The notes under the pieces are model-generated. The model had not been told where the DNA came from. It made no database searches and saw only the letters and a list, made by a program, of their open reading frames with translations. 64,000 nucleotides of DNA from a virus (Duplodnaviria > Caudoviricetes), in the IMG/VR virus record IMGVR_UViG_3300031998_000025, positions 52,731 through 116,730 of that record. One strand, given 5' to 3'. Below are positions 2,499 to 11,146 of this stretch, piece by piece; the first letter of the stretch is position 1, and every line of letters begins with the position of its first letter. The position numbers were made by a program, and so were the translations under genes.

Positions 2499-2505
2499 TT
2501 CATCC

Positions 2506-4617
2506 TCACTTGAGTAGGTCCAGGAACTGGTCGAGGGTTTCCGGGGTGTAGACATCGATGTGCTGTCCTGCAGCGGTAAGGTCCTTGATTTTCTGGACCT
2601 TGGAGGGGCCGGCATTGTCTCCCATGAGCACCACGTTGCATTTCTTGGTAATCGACGAGCAGACTGTACCGCCATTTGCTACCACCATGTCCTTGAACAC
2701 GTCGCGGTCGAGCTTCTCGAAGGTACCGGTCATGATGCAGACCTTGCCTGCGAGCTTGGCGGACTGGACTTCCTTGACTGTCTGGGCGATACCCATCTGG
2801 ACGAACCGTGCAATCTGGACCACGTTGTTCGTGATGTACTCGACGAACTTGTTGGCGAGGAGGTCAGATACGCCGGACGAGGATGCGTTGATTGCGAAAT
2901 CCCTGATGAACTCCGCGGACTCCTCCGGGTTGGACGAGACGAACTTTGCGAACCCGCCCGCGTCGGATACGCACTTGGCTATCGCCGGTGACACCTGGTG
3001 GCCTATGCCGGGGATGGAGAGCCCCTCGATGAGCTGGTGCAGGTAGTTGCCCTTGGATTTCTGGATTGCGTCGATAATCTTCTGTGCGCCCTTCTCCGTC
3101 TTTCCACACCATGATGCAACGGATTCCGCATTCAGCGTATACAGGTCGGCGAAGCATGTGACCATTCCGGACTCCACGAGCTGGTCGACGATGGACTCTC
3201 CGACGCCCATGATGTTCATGCACTCGCGGGAGACGAAGTTGGACAGCTTGCCGGTAAGCTGCGCACGGCAGTCAGGGTTGTCGCATACCCATCCAACCAG
3301 TTCCTTGCCGGATTCGTTCACCTGGCACTTCAGCACCGAGCCGCAATACGGACAGTGGGAAGGACGGGTGTAGCGGGCGTAATGGCGTTCTGCATCCGTA
3401 GTAGGGTTCCACGGCATTACGTGGGCTACGTGCTCGCGGTCGGCCTTGGTGCGGAGTACCTCGTACTCGTCCTTGGTACGGCCGGTCTCCACGCACTTGA
3501 CCAGCTCGGGGATAATCTCGCCCGCCTTCCGGATTACCACGTGGCAGCCCTTGTGCAAGCCGAGGTAGTCTACTAGGTCCCAGTTGTGGAGGGAACAGCG
3601 GGTGACCGTGGTCATGGCCAGGTTCACCGGCTCGATTACGGCTACCGGGGTGATTGCGCCGGACATGCCGATGGATTCCTCGATGTTGAGCAGGAGCGTC
3701 TCCTTCTCCTCCGGGGGGAACTTGTAGGCACGGTAGAAGTTGGGGGACTTTGCCGTGTAGCCGAAGGTGGACTGGAGTTCCTTGCTGTCCACCTTGATTA
3801 CCACGCCGTCGATGGGATATGCCTGGGCGAACCGGCGCTCGCGCATGGATTCGGCTATGTTAACGAAGTCCTGTATGGAGTTGACTGTGTGGTGCTCGGG
3901 GACCTCGAAGCCTAGTGATTCGAGGGTGTCGATGTCCTGGGTCTGGGTCATGTTCGGGCTGCCCTTGACGATGAGGTAGCCGATGAAGGAGAGCCCGCGG
4001 CGGCCTACCTCCTCCGGGTCGTGCATCTTGAGCGTACCGGCGGCGCCATTCCTCGGGTTGGCGAAGGTTTTCTTTCCGTCCGCCTCGAGCTGGTCATTGA
4101 TTGGTTCGAAGTCAGCGAACTTCCATACCACCTCGCCGCGGATTTCCACGTCTCCCATGAGGTCAATCTTGTGGGGGATTCTGCGGACTCTGAGAGCGTT
4201 CTCGTAGACAGAGTCGCCCACGTTGTCCTTGCCTCTGGTGATTGAGTCAATGAGCTGGCCGTCCTTGTACTTCAGGGCAAGGCCGAGACCGTCAATCTTG
4301 TATTCAAGTTCCAGTGTGGGAGCCTTGGTCATCGTGGCAGTGCACCACTCGGTGGCCTCCTCGATGCCGTTGGAGTTGGAGATGGAAATCATCGGGATTT
4401 CGTGCCTTACCTTCCGGAAGCCCTCGGCGCCGTCCTCGACGTGCCTGGTAGGCGACGTATCGAGGATGAAGTCCGGGTTCGCCGCCTCGAACTCCTTGAG
4501 CATGATGTAGTTCTTGTCGTATACGTCGTCCGGAACGGAGGGCGTGCCTGCTGCGTATTCCTTCGCCCACTGGGTGAGGACGTCGCACATCTCGGTGTAT
4601 TGCTTGAAATCTATCAT
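2506..4617 (-). CDS. ligA: NAD-dependent DNA ligase
   Basis: EYKIDG adenylation motif, EIRGEV, ANPRN, IDGVVIK, OB fold, C4 Zn finger, HhH repeats, BRCT. Confidence 0.97.
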   Translation of the reverse strand: MIDFKQYTEMCDVLTQWAKEYAAGTPSVPDDVYDKNYIMLKEFEAANPDFILDTSPTRHVEDGAEGFRKVRHEIPMISISNSNGIEEATEWCTATMTKAPTLELEYKIDGLGLALKYKDGQLIDSITRGKDNVGDSVYENALRVRRIPHKIDLMGDVEIRGEVVWKFADFEPINDQLEADGKKTFANPRNGAAGTLKMHDPEEVGRRGLSFIGYLIVKGSPNMTQTQDIDTLESLGFEVPEHHTVNSIQDFVNIAESMRERRFAQAYPIDGVVIKVDSKELQSTFGYTAKSPNFYRAYKFPPEEKETLLLNIEESIGMSGAITPVAVIEPVNLAMTTVTRCSLHNWDLVDYLGLHKGCHVVIRKAGEIIPELVKCVETGRTKDEYEVLRTKADREHVAHVMPWNPTTDAERHYARYTRPSHCPYCGSVLKCQVNESGKELVGWVCDNPDCRAQLTGKLSNFVSRECMNIMGVGESIVDQLVESGMVTCFADLYTLNAESVASWCGKTEKGAQKIIDAIQKSKGNYLHQLIEGLSIPGIGHQVSPAIAKCVSDAGGFAKFVSSNPEESAEFIRDFAINASSSGVSDLLANKFVEYITNNVVQIARFVQMGIAQTVKEVQSAKLAGKVCIMTGTFEKLDRDVFKDMVVANGGTVCSSITKKCNVVLMGDNAGPSKVQKIKDLTAAGQHIDVYTPETLDQFLDLLK

Positions 4618-4622
4618 GCCTA

Positions 4623-4636
4623 CAAATATAGCAAAA
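4623..4636 (-). promoter_or_regulatory. Early promoter TTTTGCTATATTTG, leaderless ligA
   Basis: Motif ends 5 nt before the ligA ATG; no RBS. Confidence 0.7.
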
Positions 4637-4643
4637 ATAGTCG

Positions 4644-4883
4644 CTATTTGTGGAATTCAGTACCATTCAGATAGCAAAGAACCCCATGATAGTCGTCCAT
4701 ATTGATGCCGGATGCCAATTTCTTACGAAGCCTCCGGCCTGGATACTTCCTCCATGGCAATATGTATGTTCCAAGAAACTCGAAGCCATGATATATGGAC
4801 TGGAGCTGTATCTTATTCGGGTGCAACTGCAGTCCAAGTGTGCCATCAAGGAATTCCCGTATTCTCGGTATGAAAGACTTTAA
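4644..4883 (-). pseudogene. DGR-type reverse transcriptase, C-terminal remnant
   Basis: LKSFIPRIREFLDGTLGLQLHPNKIQLQSIYHGFEFLG..ILP matches RT motifs 6-7 downstream of YxDD; N-terminal part including YxDD is missing. Confidence 0.8.
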
Positions 4884-4903
4884 AATACAAAAACTATATA
4901 TAA

Positions 4904-6199
4904 CTATGCAAAAGTGTAAATATTATAGCACTTTTGTATATAGTTCTTGCTGAAGACTGCATTCTGGACATAGTCCCGTAGCAGGAAACGGTATTTCAGT
5001 CCCGTTTCTTTGATTCTTGAGAATAGTCCTTTCCAGTCATCCACCGGACCGAGTGTTTGCTTCCATTGCTCATCTCGGAACTGAATATTGAATCTTGGAT
5101 AGAACCATCTCTTTTCAAATTTCTTGTATGCACGTCTGCCGATTTCGATGCTGGCAGCAACCATGTCTGGCGTATTCTCGCTACCGTAGGCAAAGTTTCC
5201 TACGATGGATGAATACGCTGGATTGACCTCAACCAAATCGAATCTATGCAGGTTAGCAAGCATCTTCAGCTTCGTAACGAACAATCGGCGTTCCCATTTG
5301 TTGTTGCACAGCTTGTTTAGTTTCTTGCCTTTCTTCTGGTCTTTCGGCTTGATGCTCAAGTCTTCGATAGCCACGGTCTTGCACTTCCATACATCTACTA
5401 GTTTGGAAATCTCGTGAGCAATTGCAATCGTCTCGTGCCTTAGCTTGCTCGTGATGTACTTGGACTTACTGTCAGTGCTCGCCTTGCCGGAAGAACCCGT
5501 CAGCTTGCTTAAATCGAACACTTGCTTATGGAGAACCTTGAACTCGTCGTTCTTGTCGAACTCTATTACCGAAAGCCCGATGTAGTTAGGATTCATGTCG
5601 ATGCCGAGAACTCGCCTACAGTCTAGCTTCTTGAACCTCGCATTGTATATTAGGCTCTCGTCATAGGTAAGCCATACATATTTTTCCGACAACTTGACGG
5701 AAACCGTTATCTTGTTCTGTTCGACAAGTTGCTGTACCTTTGCAATTTCACTGGTGATTTTCTTCTTCATCGGAAGGAACCGAATGTCTACGTGTCTGTC
5801 CTTGCTGGGCTTGTATGTAAGTCGTTGATGGTCAAGGTCAAAGGCAAACAGCCTATTGCCCTTATGCAGTTTCTCGCCCTGGATGCCTATCGGGAACATC
5901 CTGCGGTACTTGAAAGTAGTCTTGTCTATAATCCCGACAAGGTACTGGTGCAGGTTGTTCTTTCCACCGAACAGGATATGCTTCTCGCCATTCAGCTTGT
6001 ACAGCGCAGCAGCTTCCTTGACGGCGGACTGGATGAACCAGCTGTTGTGGTCGAACATCGAATTGCAGTACGCTCGTACTTCCTTCTCTTCCATCCCGTC
6101 CTGGTAACGGTTAAACGCAACACGCACGATACTGCTGAACAGCCTCATGTCGTCCAGCACATCTATCTTGTTGCTTATCGTCAGTCTAACCGTCTTCAT
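4904..6199 (-). CDS. tnpB: TnpB-related nuclease lacking the Zn ribbon
   Basis: GIDMN, AIEDL, VNPAYSS..PDMVAASIEIGRR RuvC motifs. Confidence 0.85.
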   Translation of the reverse strand: MKTVRLTISNKIDVLDDMRLFSSIVRVAFNRYQDGMEEKEVRAYCNSMFDHNSWFIQSAVKEAAALYKLNGEKHILFGGKNNLHQYLVGIIDKTTFKYRRMFPIGIQGEKLHKGNRLFAFDLDHQRLTYKPSKDRHVDIRFLPMKKKITSEIAKVQQLVEQNKITVSVKLSEKYVWLTYDESLIYNARFKKLDCRRVLGIDMNPNYIGLSVIEFDKNDEFKVLHKQVFDLSKLTGSSGKASTDSKSKYITSKLRHETIAIAHEISKLVDVWKCKTVAIEDLSIKPKDQKKGKKLNKLCNNKWERRLFVTKLKMLANLHRFDLVEVNPAYSSIVGNFAYGSENTPDMVAASIEIGRRAYKKFEKRWFYPRFNIQFRDEQWKQTLGPVDDWKGLFSRIKETGLKYRFLLRDYVQNAVFSKNYIQKCYNIYTFA

Positions 6200-6247
6200 A
6201 TAGATATTTATTCCATTTCATCTATAAGTTTATATAGTTGTCTATAA

Positions 6248-6874
6248 CTATTTATTCAATTTGGATGGGTTTTCTTGCTTTTCTAGTTCTTTTCTCAACG
6301 TATTGAGCTTTCTACGGTGAGAATAGTTCTTCATCGTGAAGTAGTGGATTATCGAGATTAGGTCTTCGGTGAGTTCCTGTTCGTATGTCTTGTTATCTAG
6401 CACATCATTCAATACAAGAATTTTACAATCATAGAACTTGAAAATCTGTTCCAGCAAGTCGAAGCCGAAACGAATCAGTCTGTCCTTGTTCTCCACGACC
6501 ACTAGTTCCAGTTCGCCCTGGATTACTCGTCTAATTATCTCTTGGAAGTCTTTGCGGTCACTGTTCATACCAGACTTAATGTCGCTGTATTGCTTGGAGA
6601 CTATCAATCCACGAGCTACGCACGAATCGTATATCCGTTGTTTCTGCTCTTCAAGTTGCTTCTTCTGGTTTTGTGTAGATACACGGGAATAGGTAACTAT
6701 ATCACGGTTCTTCTTATCTACTACCTTACCGATGAACGCATATACCGAATCGTCATCGTATTCATACCGTGTTCGGCTATATTTATGTTTTACCTTAATC
6801 TTGCCTTCACGGACATAACGGCATAGAGTTTCCCTTGTGACATCCAACAGGTTTAATGCTTCTTTTGCTCTCAT
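6248..6874 (-). CDS. tnpA: IS607 transposase TnpA (MerR-type HTH + serine recombinase)
   Basis: N-terminal HTH, YSRVST catalytic motif, DIKSG, DRLIRFGF, ELTEDL. Confidence 0.93.
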   Translation of the reverse strand: MRAKEALNLLDVTRETLCRYVREGKIKVKHKYSRTRYEYDDDSVYAFIGKVVDKKNRDIVTYSRVSTQNQKKQLEEQKQRIYDSCVARGLIVSKQYSDIKSGMNSDRKDFQEIIRRVIQGELELVVVENKDRLIRFGFDLLEQIFKFYDCKILVLNDVLDNKTYEQELTEDLISIIHYFTMKNYSHRRKLNTLRKELEKQENPSKLNK

Positions 6875-6948
6875 AATTGAGTTTCCTACCAATAACTATA
6901 TTAAATATACATTATTTTTATACAGTTATCAATAGTTTATAACAATTT

Positions 6949-7224
6949 TCATTTAATAATATGTGATTCCGATACAATATGTATATCGAAATGTTGTCCA
7001 GTTGATATCCGTTTAACCTTATCCAATGAAGTATCGGGAAATCCAATAAATAGCATTTCCTTATTAATCTGCTTATATGACTTATGCTGGACCTTGTATG
7101 GAATGATGTGCATATTGAATAGATAGGCTGACCTCTCCCAAGCCCGCCAGAATAACCGGTCTCGAACAAGATTGATTACACCGTTATTATCATTTTCCAT
7201 TATCTGTATTTCTTCTATCCGCAT
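6949..7224 (-). pseudogene. MutS-N-terminal-like (MSL) DGR accessory protein, probably 3'-truncated
   Basis: FWRAWERSAYLF..IGFP motif typical of MutS-I-like DGR accessory genes; ORF ends at the IS boundary. Confidence 0.7.
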
Positions 7225-7245
7225 ATGTGTTCCTCTGTTCTACAA

Positions 7246-7259
7246 CAAATATAGCAAAA
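7246..7259 (-). promoter_or_regulatory. Early promoter TTTTGCTATATTTG for the MSL(-TR-RT) cassette
   Basis: Recurring motif; overlaps the T-tract of the terminator. Confidence 0.65.
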
Positions 7260-7282
7260 GCCCGCCTGATGGCGGGCTTTTT
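7256..7282. terminator. Bidirectional intrinsic terminator
   Basis: AAAAGCCCGCC-TGAT-GGCGGGCTTTT. Confidence 0.8.
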
Positions 7283-7287
7283 AATTT

Positions 7288-7338
7288 CGGGTTCCTACCG
7301 CCGCGGGGCTGCGCCGGCCGCGGGCGCTTCGGAACCCG
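7288..7338 (-). other. GC-rich hairpin immediately downstream of the DGR variable region
   Basis: GGGTTCC...GGAACCC outer stem with CCGCGG..CCGCGG inner stem, directly after the target stop codon. Confidence 0.55.
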
Positions 7339-7339
7339 G

Positions 7340-8761
7340 TTAAGCGGAATCCTTTAGCAGCCGAACAGAAAACCCGAAGGACCTGCTAAGGTAGTACTCG
7401 TAGAAGTAGCTGCCGTGGCAGCCGAGGTAACGGTAGTACGCGTACGACGTACCATACGGTGTAGCTGACCAGAAGAAACCGCTGTTGCCACCGTAATCCA
7501 CCCTGGAATCACCGGGAGCGTAATACCCACAGGGCTTCCCGTCAAACCCGTAGATATCGAACCCGTTCTCACCGTCCCAACCGGAGGTAGACTTCAGGTG
7601 GGTTCCAGCCTTGAAATCGCCCCCGCAGAACCTGGACAGCTTATTCCAGTCCTCACGGGAAGGAAGTCTCCAACCGTTTCCGTATTCCTTTGCCACCCGC
7701 ATGGCGGCTTCCCATGTGAAGTAGGTCTCTCCGTTTTCCACATAGATACCGTGTTCGGGGTCTGCGGGCATCTGGAGGTTGTGGCACATCCAAATCTGGT
7801 CACCTATCCTCACCGAATCCTCGTCTACCCGGTCGATATGCTGCTCCGGTTTCGGCGGAGGCGGGCATAGTTCGAACACGTTTCCGCCGAGCAGTTTCGA
7901 TAGTTGACGGGCATCCATGGCCTGGTCGGAGCCTCCGTTGTCGTGGTTCCACCTGGTAGTGACTGCCCTCAAGTTCTCCCACGGGTCGACAATGATAGAA
8001 ATCAGGGAAAGACCGTATTCATCCAGTGGAGCCTTCTTCCCCTTTACCCAGCTAACTTTCTTGAAGTTCGGTTTGTAGGCAAAGTAGACCCTGTTCAGTC
8101 CGTCGGAAGTATAGCTGTCCCACATGTTCTTAAGGTAAGTGATGCACCAGCGGGAATCCGGGTTGGTATACTTGCTGAACTTCTTCGCAGTATCGAAGTC
8201 GGGTATCGGTTCAATAATGTAGTCGCTGTTCTTGTACTTGGCAGAAGTAAGTTCCGTCTTGAGCTCGTCGTCGGCCTTCTGGACGACCGTACCGAACCTG
8301 GCCTCCAGGCCGGAGTAAGACAGTCCGTTCAGGTCGGAATCGTATTCCTCCGCATGACCATCGGATATCAGCTTGACTATCTTCTTCAGGGAGGACAGCT
8401 TCCTGGAATCCTGCCCCCGGTTCTCCAGGTTCAGCTCGCCGTAGGCAATCCTTGCAACACCCGGCTCGAACTTCTGGTTCTCCCCGTCATGGAAGAAGCG
8501 GTTCCTGATGGTTCTCTCAAAATACTCGATATATGTCTGTTTCTTCCCGGTCATCGTCAGGATGGGACGGCCGGTATCGTCTACCGCTATAGAGTCCCAT
8601 CTGTCCGCCATTTCCGGAAACATCTCCCGGATGACCCTCTTGGTCCTGTGGGTGGCGGTAGAGGCGACGTCCTCGAACAGGACGCCGTATGCCTCCACTA
8701 TAGCCCGGTAGCACCCGGTATCCTCCCGGAGTCCCCCGAGTATCTCACTCAAGCTATCCAT
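7340..8761 (-). CDS. DGR target protein: central WCIT domain + C-terminal FISUMP/CLec-fold domain
   Basis: IGDQIWMCHNL, FTWEAA, GWRLPSREDW, FFWSAT, GFSVRLLKD; true start probably MDSLSEI at 8761, overlapping the upstream stop. Confidence 0.8.
   Translation of the reverse strand: MDSLSEILGGLREDTGCYRAIVEAYGVLFEDVASTATHRTKRVIREMFPEMADRWDSIAVDDTGRPILTMTGKKQTYIEYFERTIRNRFFHDGENQKFEPGVARIAYGELNLENRGQDSRKLSSLKKIVKLISDGHAEEYDSDLNGLSYSGLEARFGTVVQKADDELKTELTSAKYKNSDYIIEPIPDFDTAKKFSKYTNPDSRWCITYLKNMWDSYTSDGLNRVYFAYKPNFKKVSWVKGKKAPLDEYGLSLISIIVDPWENLRAVTTRWNHDNGGSDQAMDARQLSKLLGGNVFELCPPPPKPEQHIDRVDEDSVRIGDQIWMCHNLQMPADPEHGIYVENGETYFTWEAAMRVAKEYGNGWRLPSREDWNKLSRFCGGDFKAGTHLKSTSGWDGENGFDIYGFDGKPCGYYAPGDSRVDYGGNSGFFWSATPYGTSYAYYRYLGCHGSYFYEYYLSRSFGFSVRLLKDSA
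7343..7500 (-). other. Putative DGR variable region (VR)
   Basis: Run of NNC codons (TAC, GGC, TGC, CAC, AGC, TTC) between FWS and GFSVRL, as expected from AAC-templated adenine mutagenesis. Confidence 0.65.
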
Positions 8762-9329
8762 TCGCTCCCCCGGTAACTCCCCCGGCATCCCCGGCGTAGA
8801 CACCCTGCTGGTACCGGGGGTTGGTGATGGTGAAGCCGCAGCATGCGGGCATGGTGCTGTCGGGCACTCCCAGGTAAGCCTTGTCCTGCTGGTTCTTCTT
8901 CCCGTTCTTCTGGAGCTGCTCCCGGGTCTTCCGGTTGTAGTCGTTGAAGTTCTCCGGGGTAGGGGTCGGGCCGACCCTGCCGTGCAGGAGCTCCGCGTTG
9001 AGTTCACCCGGGGTGAACTGGGCGAACTCGGGAGGTTCCCAGTGTTCCTTCGCGGTCTCCTCCCCGGTATCCCTGGTGCACGTCCCGTTGATGATGGTGT
9101 TGACCTGTGCTGGGCACACGTCGGGCTGGTTGGTCCCTGCAGGCGCGTGCGCCACAGTGTGCATGAAGCCCTTGTAGTCGATTGCCGGGGTCTGCCTGGT
9201 GGCTGACGCCGAGAGCGCCTGCTCCATGAAGATACGGCGATATGCCCTGGCGGCCTCGAGGACTGCGGGGCTACCGGTCTTCCGGTACATGTCCCTCATG
9301 AAGGACAGTATGGCGCTATGCCTGGCCAT
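8754..9329 (-). CDS. Hypothetical late protein
   Basis: Translationally coupled in the late operon 9630>9329>8761. Confidence 0.7.
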   Translation of the reverse strand: MARHSAILSFMRDMYRKTGSPAVLEAARAYRRIFMEQALSASATRQTPAIDYKGFMHTVAHAPAGTNQPDVCPAQVNTIINGTCTRDTGEETAKEHWEPPEFAQFTPGELNAELLHGRVGPTPTPENFNDYNRKTREQLQKNGKKNQQDKAYLGVPDSTMPACCGFTITNPRYQQGVYAGDAGGVTGGANG

Positions 9330-9630
9330 TCTGCTGGTTCCCCTGTTCGTTCCCGGAGACTGCCAGTGCGTCCCTGAGGTCCTGCTTGGCCTTGTCGGCC
9401 TGTCCCTGGAGCTGGTCGGCCTGTTCCTGCGCCTGCTGCGCGGTCTTGAGTAGTGCCGGGATTGCGTCGGCGCTGTCGCTGTTGACGAGGCTGTCTGCGT
9501 CTACCGGGACGGTCTCGTCCTTCTGCTGTTCTTCCTGTTCGAAGATGGCCTCGTATGCGCCGAGGACGCTCTCGGTGAATGCACCGGGAGTACCTTCGCA
9601 TAGTGATTCAATGTCTTGCTTTGTAGGCAT
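9316..9630 (-). CDS. Hypothetical acidic late protein
   Basis: Preceded by late motif at 9656-9664. Confidence 0.7.
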   Translation of the reverse strand: MPTKQDIESLCEGTPGAFTESVLGAYEAIFEQEEQQKDETVPVDADSLVNSDSADAIPALLKTAQQAQEQADQLQGQADKAKQDLRDALAVSGNEQGNQQNGQA

Positions 9631-9655
9631 CGCGTACCTATCTGGTTCGATACCC

Positions 9656-9664
9656 GTAGTTTAT
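9656..9664 (-). promoter_or_regulatory. Late promoter ATAAACTAC
   Basis: Recurring motif about 25 nt upstream of structural genes. Confidence 0.7.
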
Positions 9665-10734
9665 TACCTGAGGAAAAACAGCACGGCGTTCACTATCATG
9701 GATACGAACGATACTATGGCACATATCTTGAACGCGAGACCTTCCGTCTTGCGTTCGGCTATGGTGAGCCCGAGCTGCCTCCGGAGCCCCCCGATTTCCT
9801 CCCGTACAGCCTCGCGTGTCACCGCGGAGGCCTCCTCGTAGTCCCGGATTACTCCCACCGCATGCTCGTCGAGGGCGGAGAACTTGCGGGTTAGTTCGTC
9901 ATATGACTTCTTCCTGGCGTCTGTCTCCTTGGCCAGGTTCTCCCCGAGCATCGCCAGGGTTTCCGACATGAGCTTCACCGTGCGGAGGGGAGCGGGCGAG
10001 TCGAGCGCACCGTCCTTGAGGGACTTCATGAACTCCCCGGAATCCGGGTCGTCCTCCAGGCAGCCGTCGTAGTCGTCCCCGTCGATGTCCCCGGTGACGC
10101 TGCCGGGGGAGGTGTTGCGGAGGAACTCGTTCATGTCGTGGCCATATCGGTCGAACACCTTCCACCCGCCGGATATTATGCCGTATATGCGGTCGAGCAT
10201 GTCCTCCTCCTTCTCGGACATGGGCTCGTCGGACATCTCGGTCTCCATGCGCTCTATCTCGGCGGTAAGGTCGTCCTCGGATATGTCGAGGGTCGCCTTT
10301 CGCTTCAACCGGGAGATGCTGTATATCCCAGTCGTCTCCGGTTCCTCCCGGTCCCACCCGCGGTAGCTGAATGGCTGTTCCGTGGAGGTATGCTCGATGA
10401 CCCACACGTCGTTGATGCGGTCGCAATCGAGAATGCCCCTGTAGGTGGACTCGTCGGCGAACACGGTTGCCTCTATGTCGTCCTGGGAGTCGACAATCTT
10501 CTCGACGACCTTCCTGAGCAGCCAGCTTCCGTTCACGGGTACGGATATGGGGCACATGGCGACTATTCCCGGGAGTGCACCGTGCTTGGCCATGAACTCG
10601 CTGAGAATGGCCACGGTACCGTAGAACTTGTCGGTAATCTTGTCCTTGTTCCATATGCCGGAAATCCCGAACACGTTCGTCCGGGCGAGCTTCCCGTCAT
10701 CGGAAATGCGGAGCATTACGTTAATCCTGCCCAT
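9664..10734 (-). CDS. Hypothetical protein with coiled coil and C-terminal TM helix
   Basis: Hydrophobic C-terminus ICAIVSFVSMIVNAVLFFLR. Confidence 0.7.
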   Translation of the reverse strand: MGRINVMLRISDDGKLARTNVFGISGIWNKDKITDKFYGTVAILSEFMAKHGALPGIVAMCPISVPVNGSWLLRKVVEKIVDSQDDIEATVFADESTYRGILDCDRINDVWVIEHTSTEQPFSYRGWDREEPETTGIYSISRLKRKATLDISEDDLTAEIERMETEMSDEPMSEKEEDMLDRIYGIISGGWKVFDRYGHDMNEFLRNTSPGSVTGDIDGDDYDGCLEDDPDSGEFMKSLKDGALDSPAPLRTVKLMSETLAMLGENLAKETDARKKSYDELTRKFSALDEHAVGVIRDYEEASAVTREAVREEIGGLRRQLGLTIAERKTEGLAFKICAIVSFVSMIVNAVLFFLR

Positions 10735-11146
10735 CTTCCACCTTGAAGGTAACGTACTGCATCGTGTAGTCGGTCACCTCGTTCTTGTCGTTCACATCCC
10801 CGGTGCCTACCGGGATGAACTTCATTTTATGCTCGTCGTATGTCTTCTTGAGGAGCTTGCCGAACTTGTTGTTGATGATGTCGAAATTTACCATGAGGTG
10901 GTTATCGACGATTTCGGCACCGGTGGAGTTCGCCATCGCGTGTTCCGGCCACGAGTAGCACACGGGAATCCCCTTCGCCTTGCGCTCTATAGGGGAGACC
11001 TCCTCTATTGTAATGGGCTTCTCCAGTATCTGCTGGAGGAGCTTCTCGACAAGTTCCGGGGGATATATGCGTCCTTCCTTGGTAGGAGTGGATGCCTCGA
11101 TGAGGTCCACCGTGAAAGTGGCCAGGGGCTTCTTACTTCTCGGCAT
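10721..11146 (-). CDS. Degenerate gp21-like prohead protease paralogue
   Basis: Aligns by eye with 58843..59556 (GRIYP, PVC, G.GD, VTDYT); catalytic His/Ser motifs altered. Confidence 0.6.
   Translation of the reverse strand: MPRSKKPLATFTVDLIEASTPTKEGRIYPPELVEKLLQQILEKPITIEEVSPIERKAKGIPVCYSWPEHAMANSTGAEIVDNHLMVNFDIINNKFGKLLKKTYDEHKMKFIPVGTGDVNDKNEVTDYTMQYVTFKVEDGQD

Follow-up and report, generated by a model that had tools for sequence, protein, structure and literature searches.

What became of a diversity-generating retroelement (DGR) at a locus where an insertion sequence (IS) now lies between the two halves of what looks like its cassette? The question arises in the last 64 kb of IMG/VR virus record IMGVR_UViG_3300031998_000025, a record of 116,730 bp that is rated 41% complete; this whole 64,000-nt stretch is called the window here. 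On its minus strand, a gene of the kind diversified by DGRs is followed by a hairpin, the beginning of an accessory gene, an IS607-family element and the end of a reverse transcriptase (RT) gene. We consider it very likely that the locus is a fossil DGR whose core has been replaced by the IS607-type element. An original prediction, made from the sequence alone, had proposed such a fossil with the ancestral order target, hairpin, accessory gene, template repeat (TR) and RT; both related loci and alleles without the IS support it, and every element that it listed was found at or near the place it had been given. The features on which the argument rests are the following.

7340..8761, minus strand: DGR target gene of 473 codons and a stop codon; its product ends in a FISUMP/Fib_succ_major domain (PF09603, TIGR02145)
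7343..7520, minus strand: variable region (VR), the 3' end of the target gene, recognized by the codon-position pattern of differences from related locus L005
7288..7338, minus strand: GC-rich hairpin right after the target stop codon, at the position of the initiation of mutagenic homing (IMH)/hairpin element of DGRs (DNA fold, conserved in L005)
6955..7224, minus strand: DGR accessory gene cut down to codons 1-90 of 252, putative MutS-I-like N-terminal domain alone (homology to proteins P0155 and P0003)
4881..~6955, minus strand: IS607-family element, ~2075 bp, whose left end begins TAAATGAAAATTG and whose right end finishes GTATTTTA
6248..6874, minus strand: tnpA, serine-recombinase transposase of IS607 type (NF033518, PF00239, HTH_17/MerR N-terminus)
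4904..6199, minus strand: tnpB-like RuvC nuclease gene, 431 aa, without a zinc finger (TIGR01766 below threshold, Foldseek)
4881..5110, minus strand: conserved structured region from the 3' part of tnpB to the right end, candidate omega-RNA scaffold (minimum free energy, covariation)
4644..4883, minus strand: C-terminal 78-79 codons of a DGR-type RT, from past the YxDD box to the stop (phrog_1423, proteins P0001/P0002, loci L057-L066)

The target gene, its variable region and the hairpin

The C-terminus of the target protein scores 55.9 bits against PF09603 Fib_succ_major (cut-off 33.9) and 77.1 bits against TIGR02145 (cut-off 41.65). L005 is the sole related viral locus found for the gene; its product is 81% identical at the amino acid level, and the start of its open reading frame (ORF) was used to set the target start at 8761. 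Nucleotide homology between the two loci runs from 8679 to 7258 at 82.9% identity and ends at the target terminator. Across 7343-7520 they differ at 43 of 178 aligned positions, 31 of the 43 being at codon positions 1-2, whereas in the rest of the target (7521-8679) they differ at 190 of 1159, of which 134 are at position 3 and 56 at positions 1-2 (Fisher p=3.9e-7 for the contrast). Such a distribution is as would be expected from rewriting of AAC-type template codons, and we take the target to be a C-type-lectin-like protein with a C-terminal VR, as DGR targets are. The segment 7343-7500, previously picked out as the VR, indeed behaves as one in this comparison, with its extent corrected to ~7520.

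Past the target stop codon, 80 nt are nearly identical in the window and L005. The GC-rich hairpin (folded over 7284-7342) has a predicted energy of -21.6 kcal/mol and a z of -3.4; the L005 version folds alike, and its differences preserve the fold. Another relative, L059, also has a GC hairpin after its VR. The window holds what a DGR requires 3' of its VR, a GC-rich hairpin at the putative IMH region.

An accessory gene cut short at the insertion sequence

The next ORF encodes 91 aa and spans 6949-7224 on the minus strand, its final codon (K) and stop codon being supplied by the IS. It received no Pfam, NCBIfam or PHROG assignment. A HMMER search of 1.84 billion representatives returned 490 matches at E<=1e-3; the best, P0003, shares 98% identity across residues 1-90 and extends further, and P0155, a 252-aa protein of the P0003 cluster, matches at 88 of the first 90 residues (sequences compared by eye). 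By this homology the ORF is residues 1-90 of a 252-residue protein, from a family whose members are typically 220-290 aa long, and P0155 confirms the earlier statement that the accessory ORF stops at the IS edge. Neither tblastn of the ORF against 50,697 phage records nor a viral-contig scan with it gave a match, and a metagenome-contig scan with P0155 gave nothing, records near the window possibly lying outside that search.

The AlphaFold model of P0155 (pLDDT 86.4) consists of an alpha/beta N-domain (residues 1-113) and a four-helix bundle (125-213). In Foldseek, the bundle matches Avd from the Bordetella phage (4dwl_D) with an rmsd of 2.0 and a target-normalised TM of 0.67, and also the Avd chains of DGR ribonucleoprotein structures 8ub7 and 8ube. 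Of 20 family members, 3 match the bAvd profile (best E=8.4e-5) and 2 match MutS_I (PF01624; best E=1.3e-3), all of them under the curated cut-offs. The nearest named ESM-Atlas clusters of the N-domain have MutS_I in 13-15% of their members, with scores of 0.93-0.94; no MutS chain is among the top Foldseek matches of the P0155 model, and a profile of the family reaches E=0.33-0.46 at best against PDB sequences. A reasonable interpretation of the model is that the accessory protein is a fusion of MutS-I-like and Avd parts. The window would then retain the first domain alone, the Avd-like bundle that characterizes DGR accessory proteins being deleted. The name "MutS-like accessory" in the original prediction is likewise reasonable on the Atlas clusters and the weak profiles but tentative.

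Members of this family also share a conserved C-terminal tail, R..GE...ESS.P, past the four-helix bundle and near the TR start, which may reflect a conserved nucleic-acid element overlapping the end of the gene.

The end of a reverse transcriptase gene

On the other side of the IS, 4644-4883 gives no Pfam match but does match phrog_1423, a reverse transcriptase family, with E=3.1e-7. Among longer proteins it found the RVT_1-domain proteins P0001 and P0002, with 43-44% identity in that search and 41-43% in separate comparisons, and it aligns to residues 261-321 of the 397 in P0002, past the YxDD box. Both of these proteins carry YVDD and the motif IGNLTSQ; an SQ-containing motif of this type is, we assume, a signature of DGR RTs. 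The fragment shares the trinucleotide TTA at 4881-4883 with the right end of the IS. Its profile match and its full-length DGR-type relatives bear out the RT C-terminus read there before. With tblastn against the 50,697 phage records it gave 5 weak RT matches; a viral-contig scan with P0002 gave nothing.

No RT with a catalytic YxDD box and no adenine-variant TR is present in the window, as had been noted, and the same holds for the entire 116.7-kb record. There, an RVT_1 search had no match (the control search was positive in 4 of 14 genomes), and no second copy of the VR (7330-7560) was found, the best non-self matches being 14-19 nt long (E=0.28). An exact 22-nt pattern taken from the VR end and hairpin occurs in the L005 contig alone and yielded no TR.

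Related loci with the complete cassette

Twelve viral loci, recovered by a viral-contig scan with an alignment of the accessory family, served as relatives. Since the layout VR, accessory gene, TR and RT is intact in 10 of these 12 (L057-L066), we read the locus in the window as the remnant of a standard DGR with VR, hairpin, accessory gene, TR and RT in this order. In the ten loci the VR lies at ~4665-4863, the accessory gene at 5001-5800, the TR at ~5858-6056 and the RT gene at ~6092-7150. Their TRs are 191-203 nt long and 88-93% identical to the VRs; the differences between TR and VR of L059 are at TR adenines (by eye, uncounted). The RT fragment of the window aligns to ~6845-7110, the last ~90 RT codons, and the motif SVRL[VL]KDS ends the target in both L059 and the window.

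This arrangement resembles DGRs with CLec2-type VRs and MutS-like (MSL) accessory genes. Wu et al. (2018; PMC5758913) describe CLec2-type VRs in DUF1566/Fib_succ_major targets ("category d" targets, "Architecture D") and MSL accessory genes (112-283 aa) from DGRs in which avd is present as well; for Bacteroides, bioRxiv 10.1101/2024.11.15.621889 describes DGRs having both Avd and Msl. Like the systems in these accounts, the window has a C-terminal FISUMP VR followed by a hairpin, the accessory protein appears to have a MutS-domain-I-like part and an Avd-like four-helix bundle, and the order target, accessory gene, TR and RT is seen in the relatives. Unlike the separate msl and avd genes described there, one 252-aa protein here joins the MutS-like and Avd-like parts, and the cassette in the window is a remnant without a TR and without the RT catalytic core.

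The IS607-family element and its ends

TnpA scores 153.1 bits against NF033518 (IS607 transposase; cut-off 110) and matches PF00239 at E=6.4e-20, as a small serine recombinase with an N-terminal helix-turn-helix. The IS607 element of the original prediction is confirmed by this, but its limits are corrected to 4881 and ~6955-6958 and the TnpA start to a likely ATG at 6874. At the right end, nucleotide homology among 9 copies stops at GTATTTTA, window position 4881 (blastn end points 4879-4883). Sequencing runs that hold the stretch are animal gut metagenomes (bovine, sheep, other). One of them, X1, contains 96% of the sampled words of the stretch and may be the source sample; its contigs break at 4881 and 6958. 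Stretches of runs X4, X5 and X7 without contig cover were left out of the evidence. Three nucleotides at each junction, TAT on the left and TTA on the right, are shared between the IS and the IS-free alleles described below. The right-end terminus is TA in 7 of the 9 aligned copies, and the left junction also reads TA; the GG core dinucleotide typical of IS607 termini and targets is absent. No terminal inverted repeats were found in the element, and its two flanks belong to different genes.

A TnpA homolog stands beside tnpB in 4 of 50 related loci, and L056, found with TnpA as query, is a fifth: its TnpA is 61% identical, and the tnpB after it is decayed. From these loci the pairing of tnpA and tnpB is genuine, most copies being solo tnpB. 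No further copy of the IS was found in the 116.7-kb record, where it is single. The element shares with IS607 elements described in 10.1101/2023.11.20.567912 and PMC13565253 a serine TnpA, a downstream tnpB on the same strand, a predicted structured RNA from the tnpB 3' end to the right end, the lack of inverted terminal repeats and the same dinucleotide at both junctions. These two sources report that most IS607 members end in GG and insert at GG, with G-rich target-adjacent motifs (TAMs); the element in the window, in contrast, has A/T-rich ends that finish in TA. It further differs from known IS607 elements in its TnpB, which lacks both a zinc finger and a Pfam OrfB match, and in that most of its phage-contig relatives are solo tnpB. 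We regard it as a somewhat unusual IS607 lineage, ending in TA and encoding a TnpB without a zinc finger.

Two side observations concern the element. Contig depth in run X1 is 36 and 32 at the IS ends (4881-4968 and 6863-6958) versus 18 in the interior, and one X1 contig joins 4968 to 6863, which suggests a ~180-nt miniature derivative, resembling a miniature inverted-repeat transposable element, at another site in the same sample; no such derivative was found in the 116.7-kb record. A 19-nt inverted repeat, 6400-6418 and 7093-7111 (95% complementary), pairs the tnpA interior with the accessory fragment and may be due to chance.

Alleles without the element and the origin of the deletion

IS-free contigs of runs X5 and X7 follow the window as far as 6956 and part from it at 6955, and on the other side an X7 contig follows it to 4883. 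The first X7 contig (928 nt) covers 6956-7280 with 4 differences and runs 597 nt past 6956; the first 30 nt of this extension encode residues 91-100 of P0155 (hand translation). The second (1705 nt) covers 4340-4883 and runs 115 nt past 4883, of which the 30 nt read are in the frame of the RT fragment; an X7 contig also links the RT end to the NAD-dependent DNA ligase gene that follows. Comparison with IS-free relatives, which the original prediction had called for, thus finds accessory and RT sequence continuing past both junctions. A 730-nt contig of run X5 shows no difference from the window across 6956-7374, after which 104 other nt connect it to 4684; it is a different, IS-free deletion allele.

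The ancestor would have had a target with a C-terminal FISUMP/CLec2-type VR, a GC hairpin, a MutS-I-like/Avd accessory gene, a TR and an RT. The IS now separates accessory codon 90 from RT codon ~250-260, and what was lost there would comprise 162 accessory codons, the TR and the RT fingers and palm with the YxDD box (~250 RT codons). By analogy with the relatives, we estimate the missing DNA at ~1.5 kb, made up of 486 nt from the accessory gene, the TR (~200 nt) with spacers of ~57 nt before it and ~36 nt after it, and ~750 nt from the RT gene.

The IS itself may have produced this deletion, given that both junctions resemble transposase junctions with TA on each side. The IS-free site sequences are TAT-TA in the RT allele, at the right end, and TAT-CA in the accessory allele, at the left end. 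The right junction would be the outcome of simple insertion at the RT site TAT-TA. The left one would likewise result from insertion, at the accessory site TAT-CA, provided that the donor's dinucleotide ends up in the left junction, as is described for a Clostridium IS607 element (10.1101/2023.11.20.567912). Two routes could lead to the present arrangement: insertion of IS copies at the two sites followed by recombination between the copies, or a TnpA-catalysed reaction of one IS end with a nearby target-like site.

A different history, in which a deletion unrelated to the IS came first and the IS later inserted at or near the junction of the collapsed accessory-RT fusion, seems to us quite improbable. 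Accessory N-part/RT C-part fusions without an IS, found in three other lineages and in run X5, do make decay by internal deletion common. Yet both deletion end points lie within 0-3 nt of the IS ends, so that a hit on an older junction would be a coincidence, and in the IS-free allele the TAT-TA site flanking the right end is intact. Insertion with an adjacent deletion, as originally proposed, stands in that the IS sits exactly at the gap, but the IS may or may not have caused it, IS-free deletions occurring elsewhere.

Several points weigh against a fossil DGR emptied by its IS. The TR and intact RT of the phage's own lineage were not seen as sequence, only 30 nt of each IS-free extension having been read, and 41% of the genome is in hand. 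IS-free deletions between accessory gene and RT exist in P0011, P0006, L067 and run X5, so the IS need not be the cause. The empty accessory site has CA where the IS junction has TA, which departs from a strict matching-core model. Finally, L005 keeps target and hairpin with no cassette in 170 kb, and the group may therefore lose cassettes in several ways or carry them elsewhere.

Internal deletion is a recurrent mode of decay of this DGR cassette, because deletions without an IS are seen in P0011, P0006, L067 and run X5. The first three of these (L067 at 464-810) are independent in-frame fusions of an accessory N-part to an RT C-part. P0011 corresponds to an L059-like cassette minus ~1.35 kb, and L067, one of the two relatives without an intact layout, passes from accessory residues 1-43 directly to the RT C-terminus; the other, L068, is truncated. 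L005 (3217-4722) has kept target, diverged VR, hairpin and terminator, with other genes after the terminator, and its 170-kb contig contains no accessory gene, TR or RT.

Promoter boxes, base composition and neighbouring genes

The surroundings of the remnant are marked by the following features.

7256..7281, minus strand: intrinsic terminator of the target gene, an 11-bp perfect stem followed by a T run
7246..7257, minus strand: phage promoter box with the sequence TTGCTATATTTG, upstream of the accessory gene (repeated 12-mer)
4623-4634: second copy of the promoter box TTGCTATATTTG, ahead of the ligase gene (12-mer match)
2506..4617, minus strand: NAD-dependent DNA ligase (PF01653 E=1.3e-60, with OB and BRCT domains), the first phage gene after the DGR remnant

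The terminator fold (7250-7286) has -14.5 kcal/mol and a z of -6.6. An Rfam scan of 4000-9000 gave just three sub-threshold leader-like matches, at the terminator region, which we took as chance. The window contains 8 exact copies of the 12-mer TTGCTATATTTG where 0.09 would be expected, and 9 when one mismatch is allowed. The copies lie on both strands, other sites including 13892, 40613, 44082, 44553, 46318 and 59819. The 12-mer probably serves the phage as a promoter box and could be used for mapping transcription units; it resembles what we take to be the Bacteroidota -7 promoter box, TAnnTTTG. A 15-nt direct repeat (4622-4636 and 7245-7259) had been considered as a pair of insertion scars of a low-GC block; this was rejected, its core being the same 12-mer with its 8 copies in the window.

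Base composition bears on one more account of the locus, that 4620-7250 is a single imported low-GC block, in which the IS arrived together with scraps of a foreign DGR and no DGR ever worked here. GC content is 37-48% over 4501-7500 and 37-46% inside the IS, against 57-60% on either side, and accessory fragment, IS and RT fragment are all within the 37-48% range, as such a block would be. Against this, the low-GC segment sits exactly downstream of a VR and hairpin; in IS-free sequences (P0155, X7) the accessory gene follows the same target end and terminator, and the same ligase follows the RT end; and the promoter of the accessory gene is the phage's own box, TTGCTATATTTG. The IS-free contigs already point to intact alleles at this position, which would refute importation, and we regard it as extremely unlikely. 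Megablast of 2500-10800 against the 50,697 phage records gave no match.

Is the variable region frozen?

Whatever removed it, the cassette at this locus is certainly non-functional. Because TR and RT are gone, it can supply no mutagenic cDNA, and the target would keep its existing VR unless a DGR elsewhere in the genome serves it. A "frozen" VR, as put forward in the original prediction, is therefore plausible. In run X1 one contig spans the VR (6929-7793) with 0 differences, although contigs can hide rare variants. Contigs of run X7, which has the IS-free alleles, stop at 7280 and resume at 7447, inside the VR; an assembly break of this kind is the behaviour of a repeat or of a variable stretch.

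A second DGR, with its own RT and TR, might still diversify the VR in trans from the unsampled 59% of the genome or from a co-resident element. In its favour, the record covers 41% of the genome, and a second copy of the identical 91-aa protein lies on a 284,234-bp contig outside the record, and because of this copy the host genome of the locus is probably that of a jumbo phage of ~284 kb from the rumen. The hairpin needed for retrohoming is also intact, and L005 keeps a diverged VR without a cassette in 170 kb. Weighed against the X1 contig that crosses the VR with 0 differences where X7 contigs break, and against the lack of a TR in 116.7 kb, we judge diversification in trans improbable.

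The TnpB-like nuclease and a possible homing drive

The tnpB-like ORF matches TIGR01766 (E=1.3e-4) and phrog_12300 (E=1.7e-5) below threshold and no Pfam family, OrfB_Zn_ribbon and OrfB_IS605 included; phmmer against PDB sequences gave no match. The TnpB hallmark of a RuvC fold with a D-E-D triad is present: across 17 aligned TnpB-like sequences D201 and D345 do not vary, and E279 is conserved to at least 90%. Not one Cys is invariant among these 17, and the zinc ribbon of TnpB, with CxxC pairs between RuvC-II and RuvC-III, is missing. Foldseek with the model (pLDDT 71.2) recovers structures of Cas12f, TnpB, Cas12k, Fanzor2 and RuvC, at E values as low as 5e-10. It resembles ISDra2 TnpB (8exa/8h1j), ISFba1 TnpB (8iaz) and AsCas12f (7wju) at a Foldseek probability of 1.00 (E 5e-10 to 4e-4) and in the conserved RuvC D-E-D; it differs from these structures in full-length TM-scores of just 0.23-0.31, in the absence of a sequence-level PDB match and in having no zinc ribbon. 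Relatives were found at 39 viral loci and at 11 loci on contigs of prokaryote metagenome-assembled genomes (L006-L055), with up to 4 copies per contig.

The last ~230 nt before the right end fold more stably than shuffled sequences (minimum free energy z -3.65), and 10 copies share a consensus structure with compensatory changes in 17 of its 45 pairs. These features fit a candidate omega-RNA scaffold, although no Rfam family matches the region. Left ends and a TAM were sought from solo tnpB copies, whose upstream regions were too divergent to define a TAM. In three close solo copies (L007, L011 and L045; ~2895-2995), the motif ATATAAACTTA is separated from the tnpB start codon by a conserved, hairpin-rich stretch of ~105 nt that neither the window nor L006 has.

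As described in 10.1101/2023.11.20.567912 and PMC13565253, a TnpB takes its guide from the flank past the right end and cleaves the empty site, the TAM being the target motif of the transposase. From this model and the covarying 3' RNA structure it would follow that the guide position here is RT sequence. If the right junction is the original insertion junction, the IS-free RT allele is its empty site, with homologous flanks on both sides; an allele of the X7 type, with TAT-TA beside the guide sequence, would be a natural example. An active TnpB-omegaRNA guided by RT sequence would then cut intact DGR alleles in mixed infections, and repair through the target/accessory flank and the RT-end/ligase flank would copy the IS along with the 1.5-kb deletion, spreading a DGR-null allele by homing. 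We consider this whole reading unlikely, though conceivable. A DGR-silencing drive of this sort, proposed in the original prediction, would amount to ordinary TnpB homing logic with an unusual cargo, the deletion. Our literature search for a TnpB/IS607 element inside a DGR found no description; TnpB genes and a DGR are reported in the same crAss-like phages in PMC11054128, in an account that leaves the two unlinked.

Implications for rumen phage DGRs

Taken together, the locus is a well-documented case of ordinary DGR decay and no new kind of system, with an IS607/TnpB lineage that is somewhat unusual; it leaves the understanding of DGRs and of TnpB unchanged. The TA-ending, zinc-finger-less TnpB lineage is abundant in large phage contigs and could be of interest as a candidate family of compact RNA-guided nucleases. 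The locus is also a well-resolved natural example of a phage DGR being switched off. One phage group shows at least four states of the cassette: free of the IS past both junctions (X7), deleted with the IS (the window), deleted without it (X5) and absent (L005). With such a spread of states, the costs and benefits of hypermutation in rumen phages become testable with existing metagenomes.

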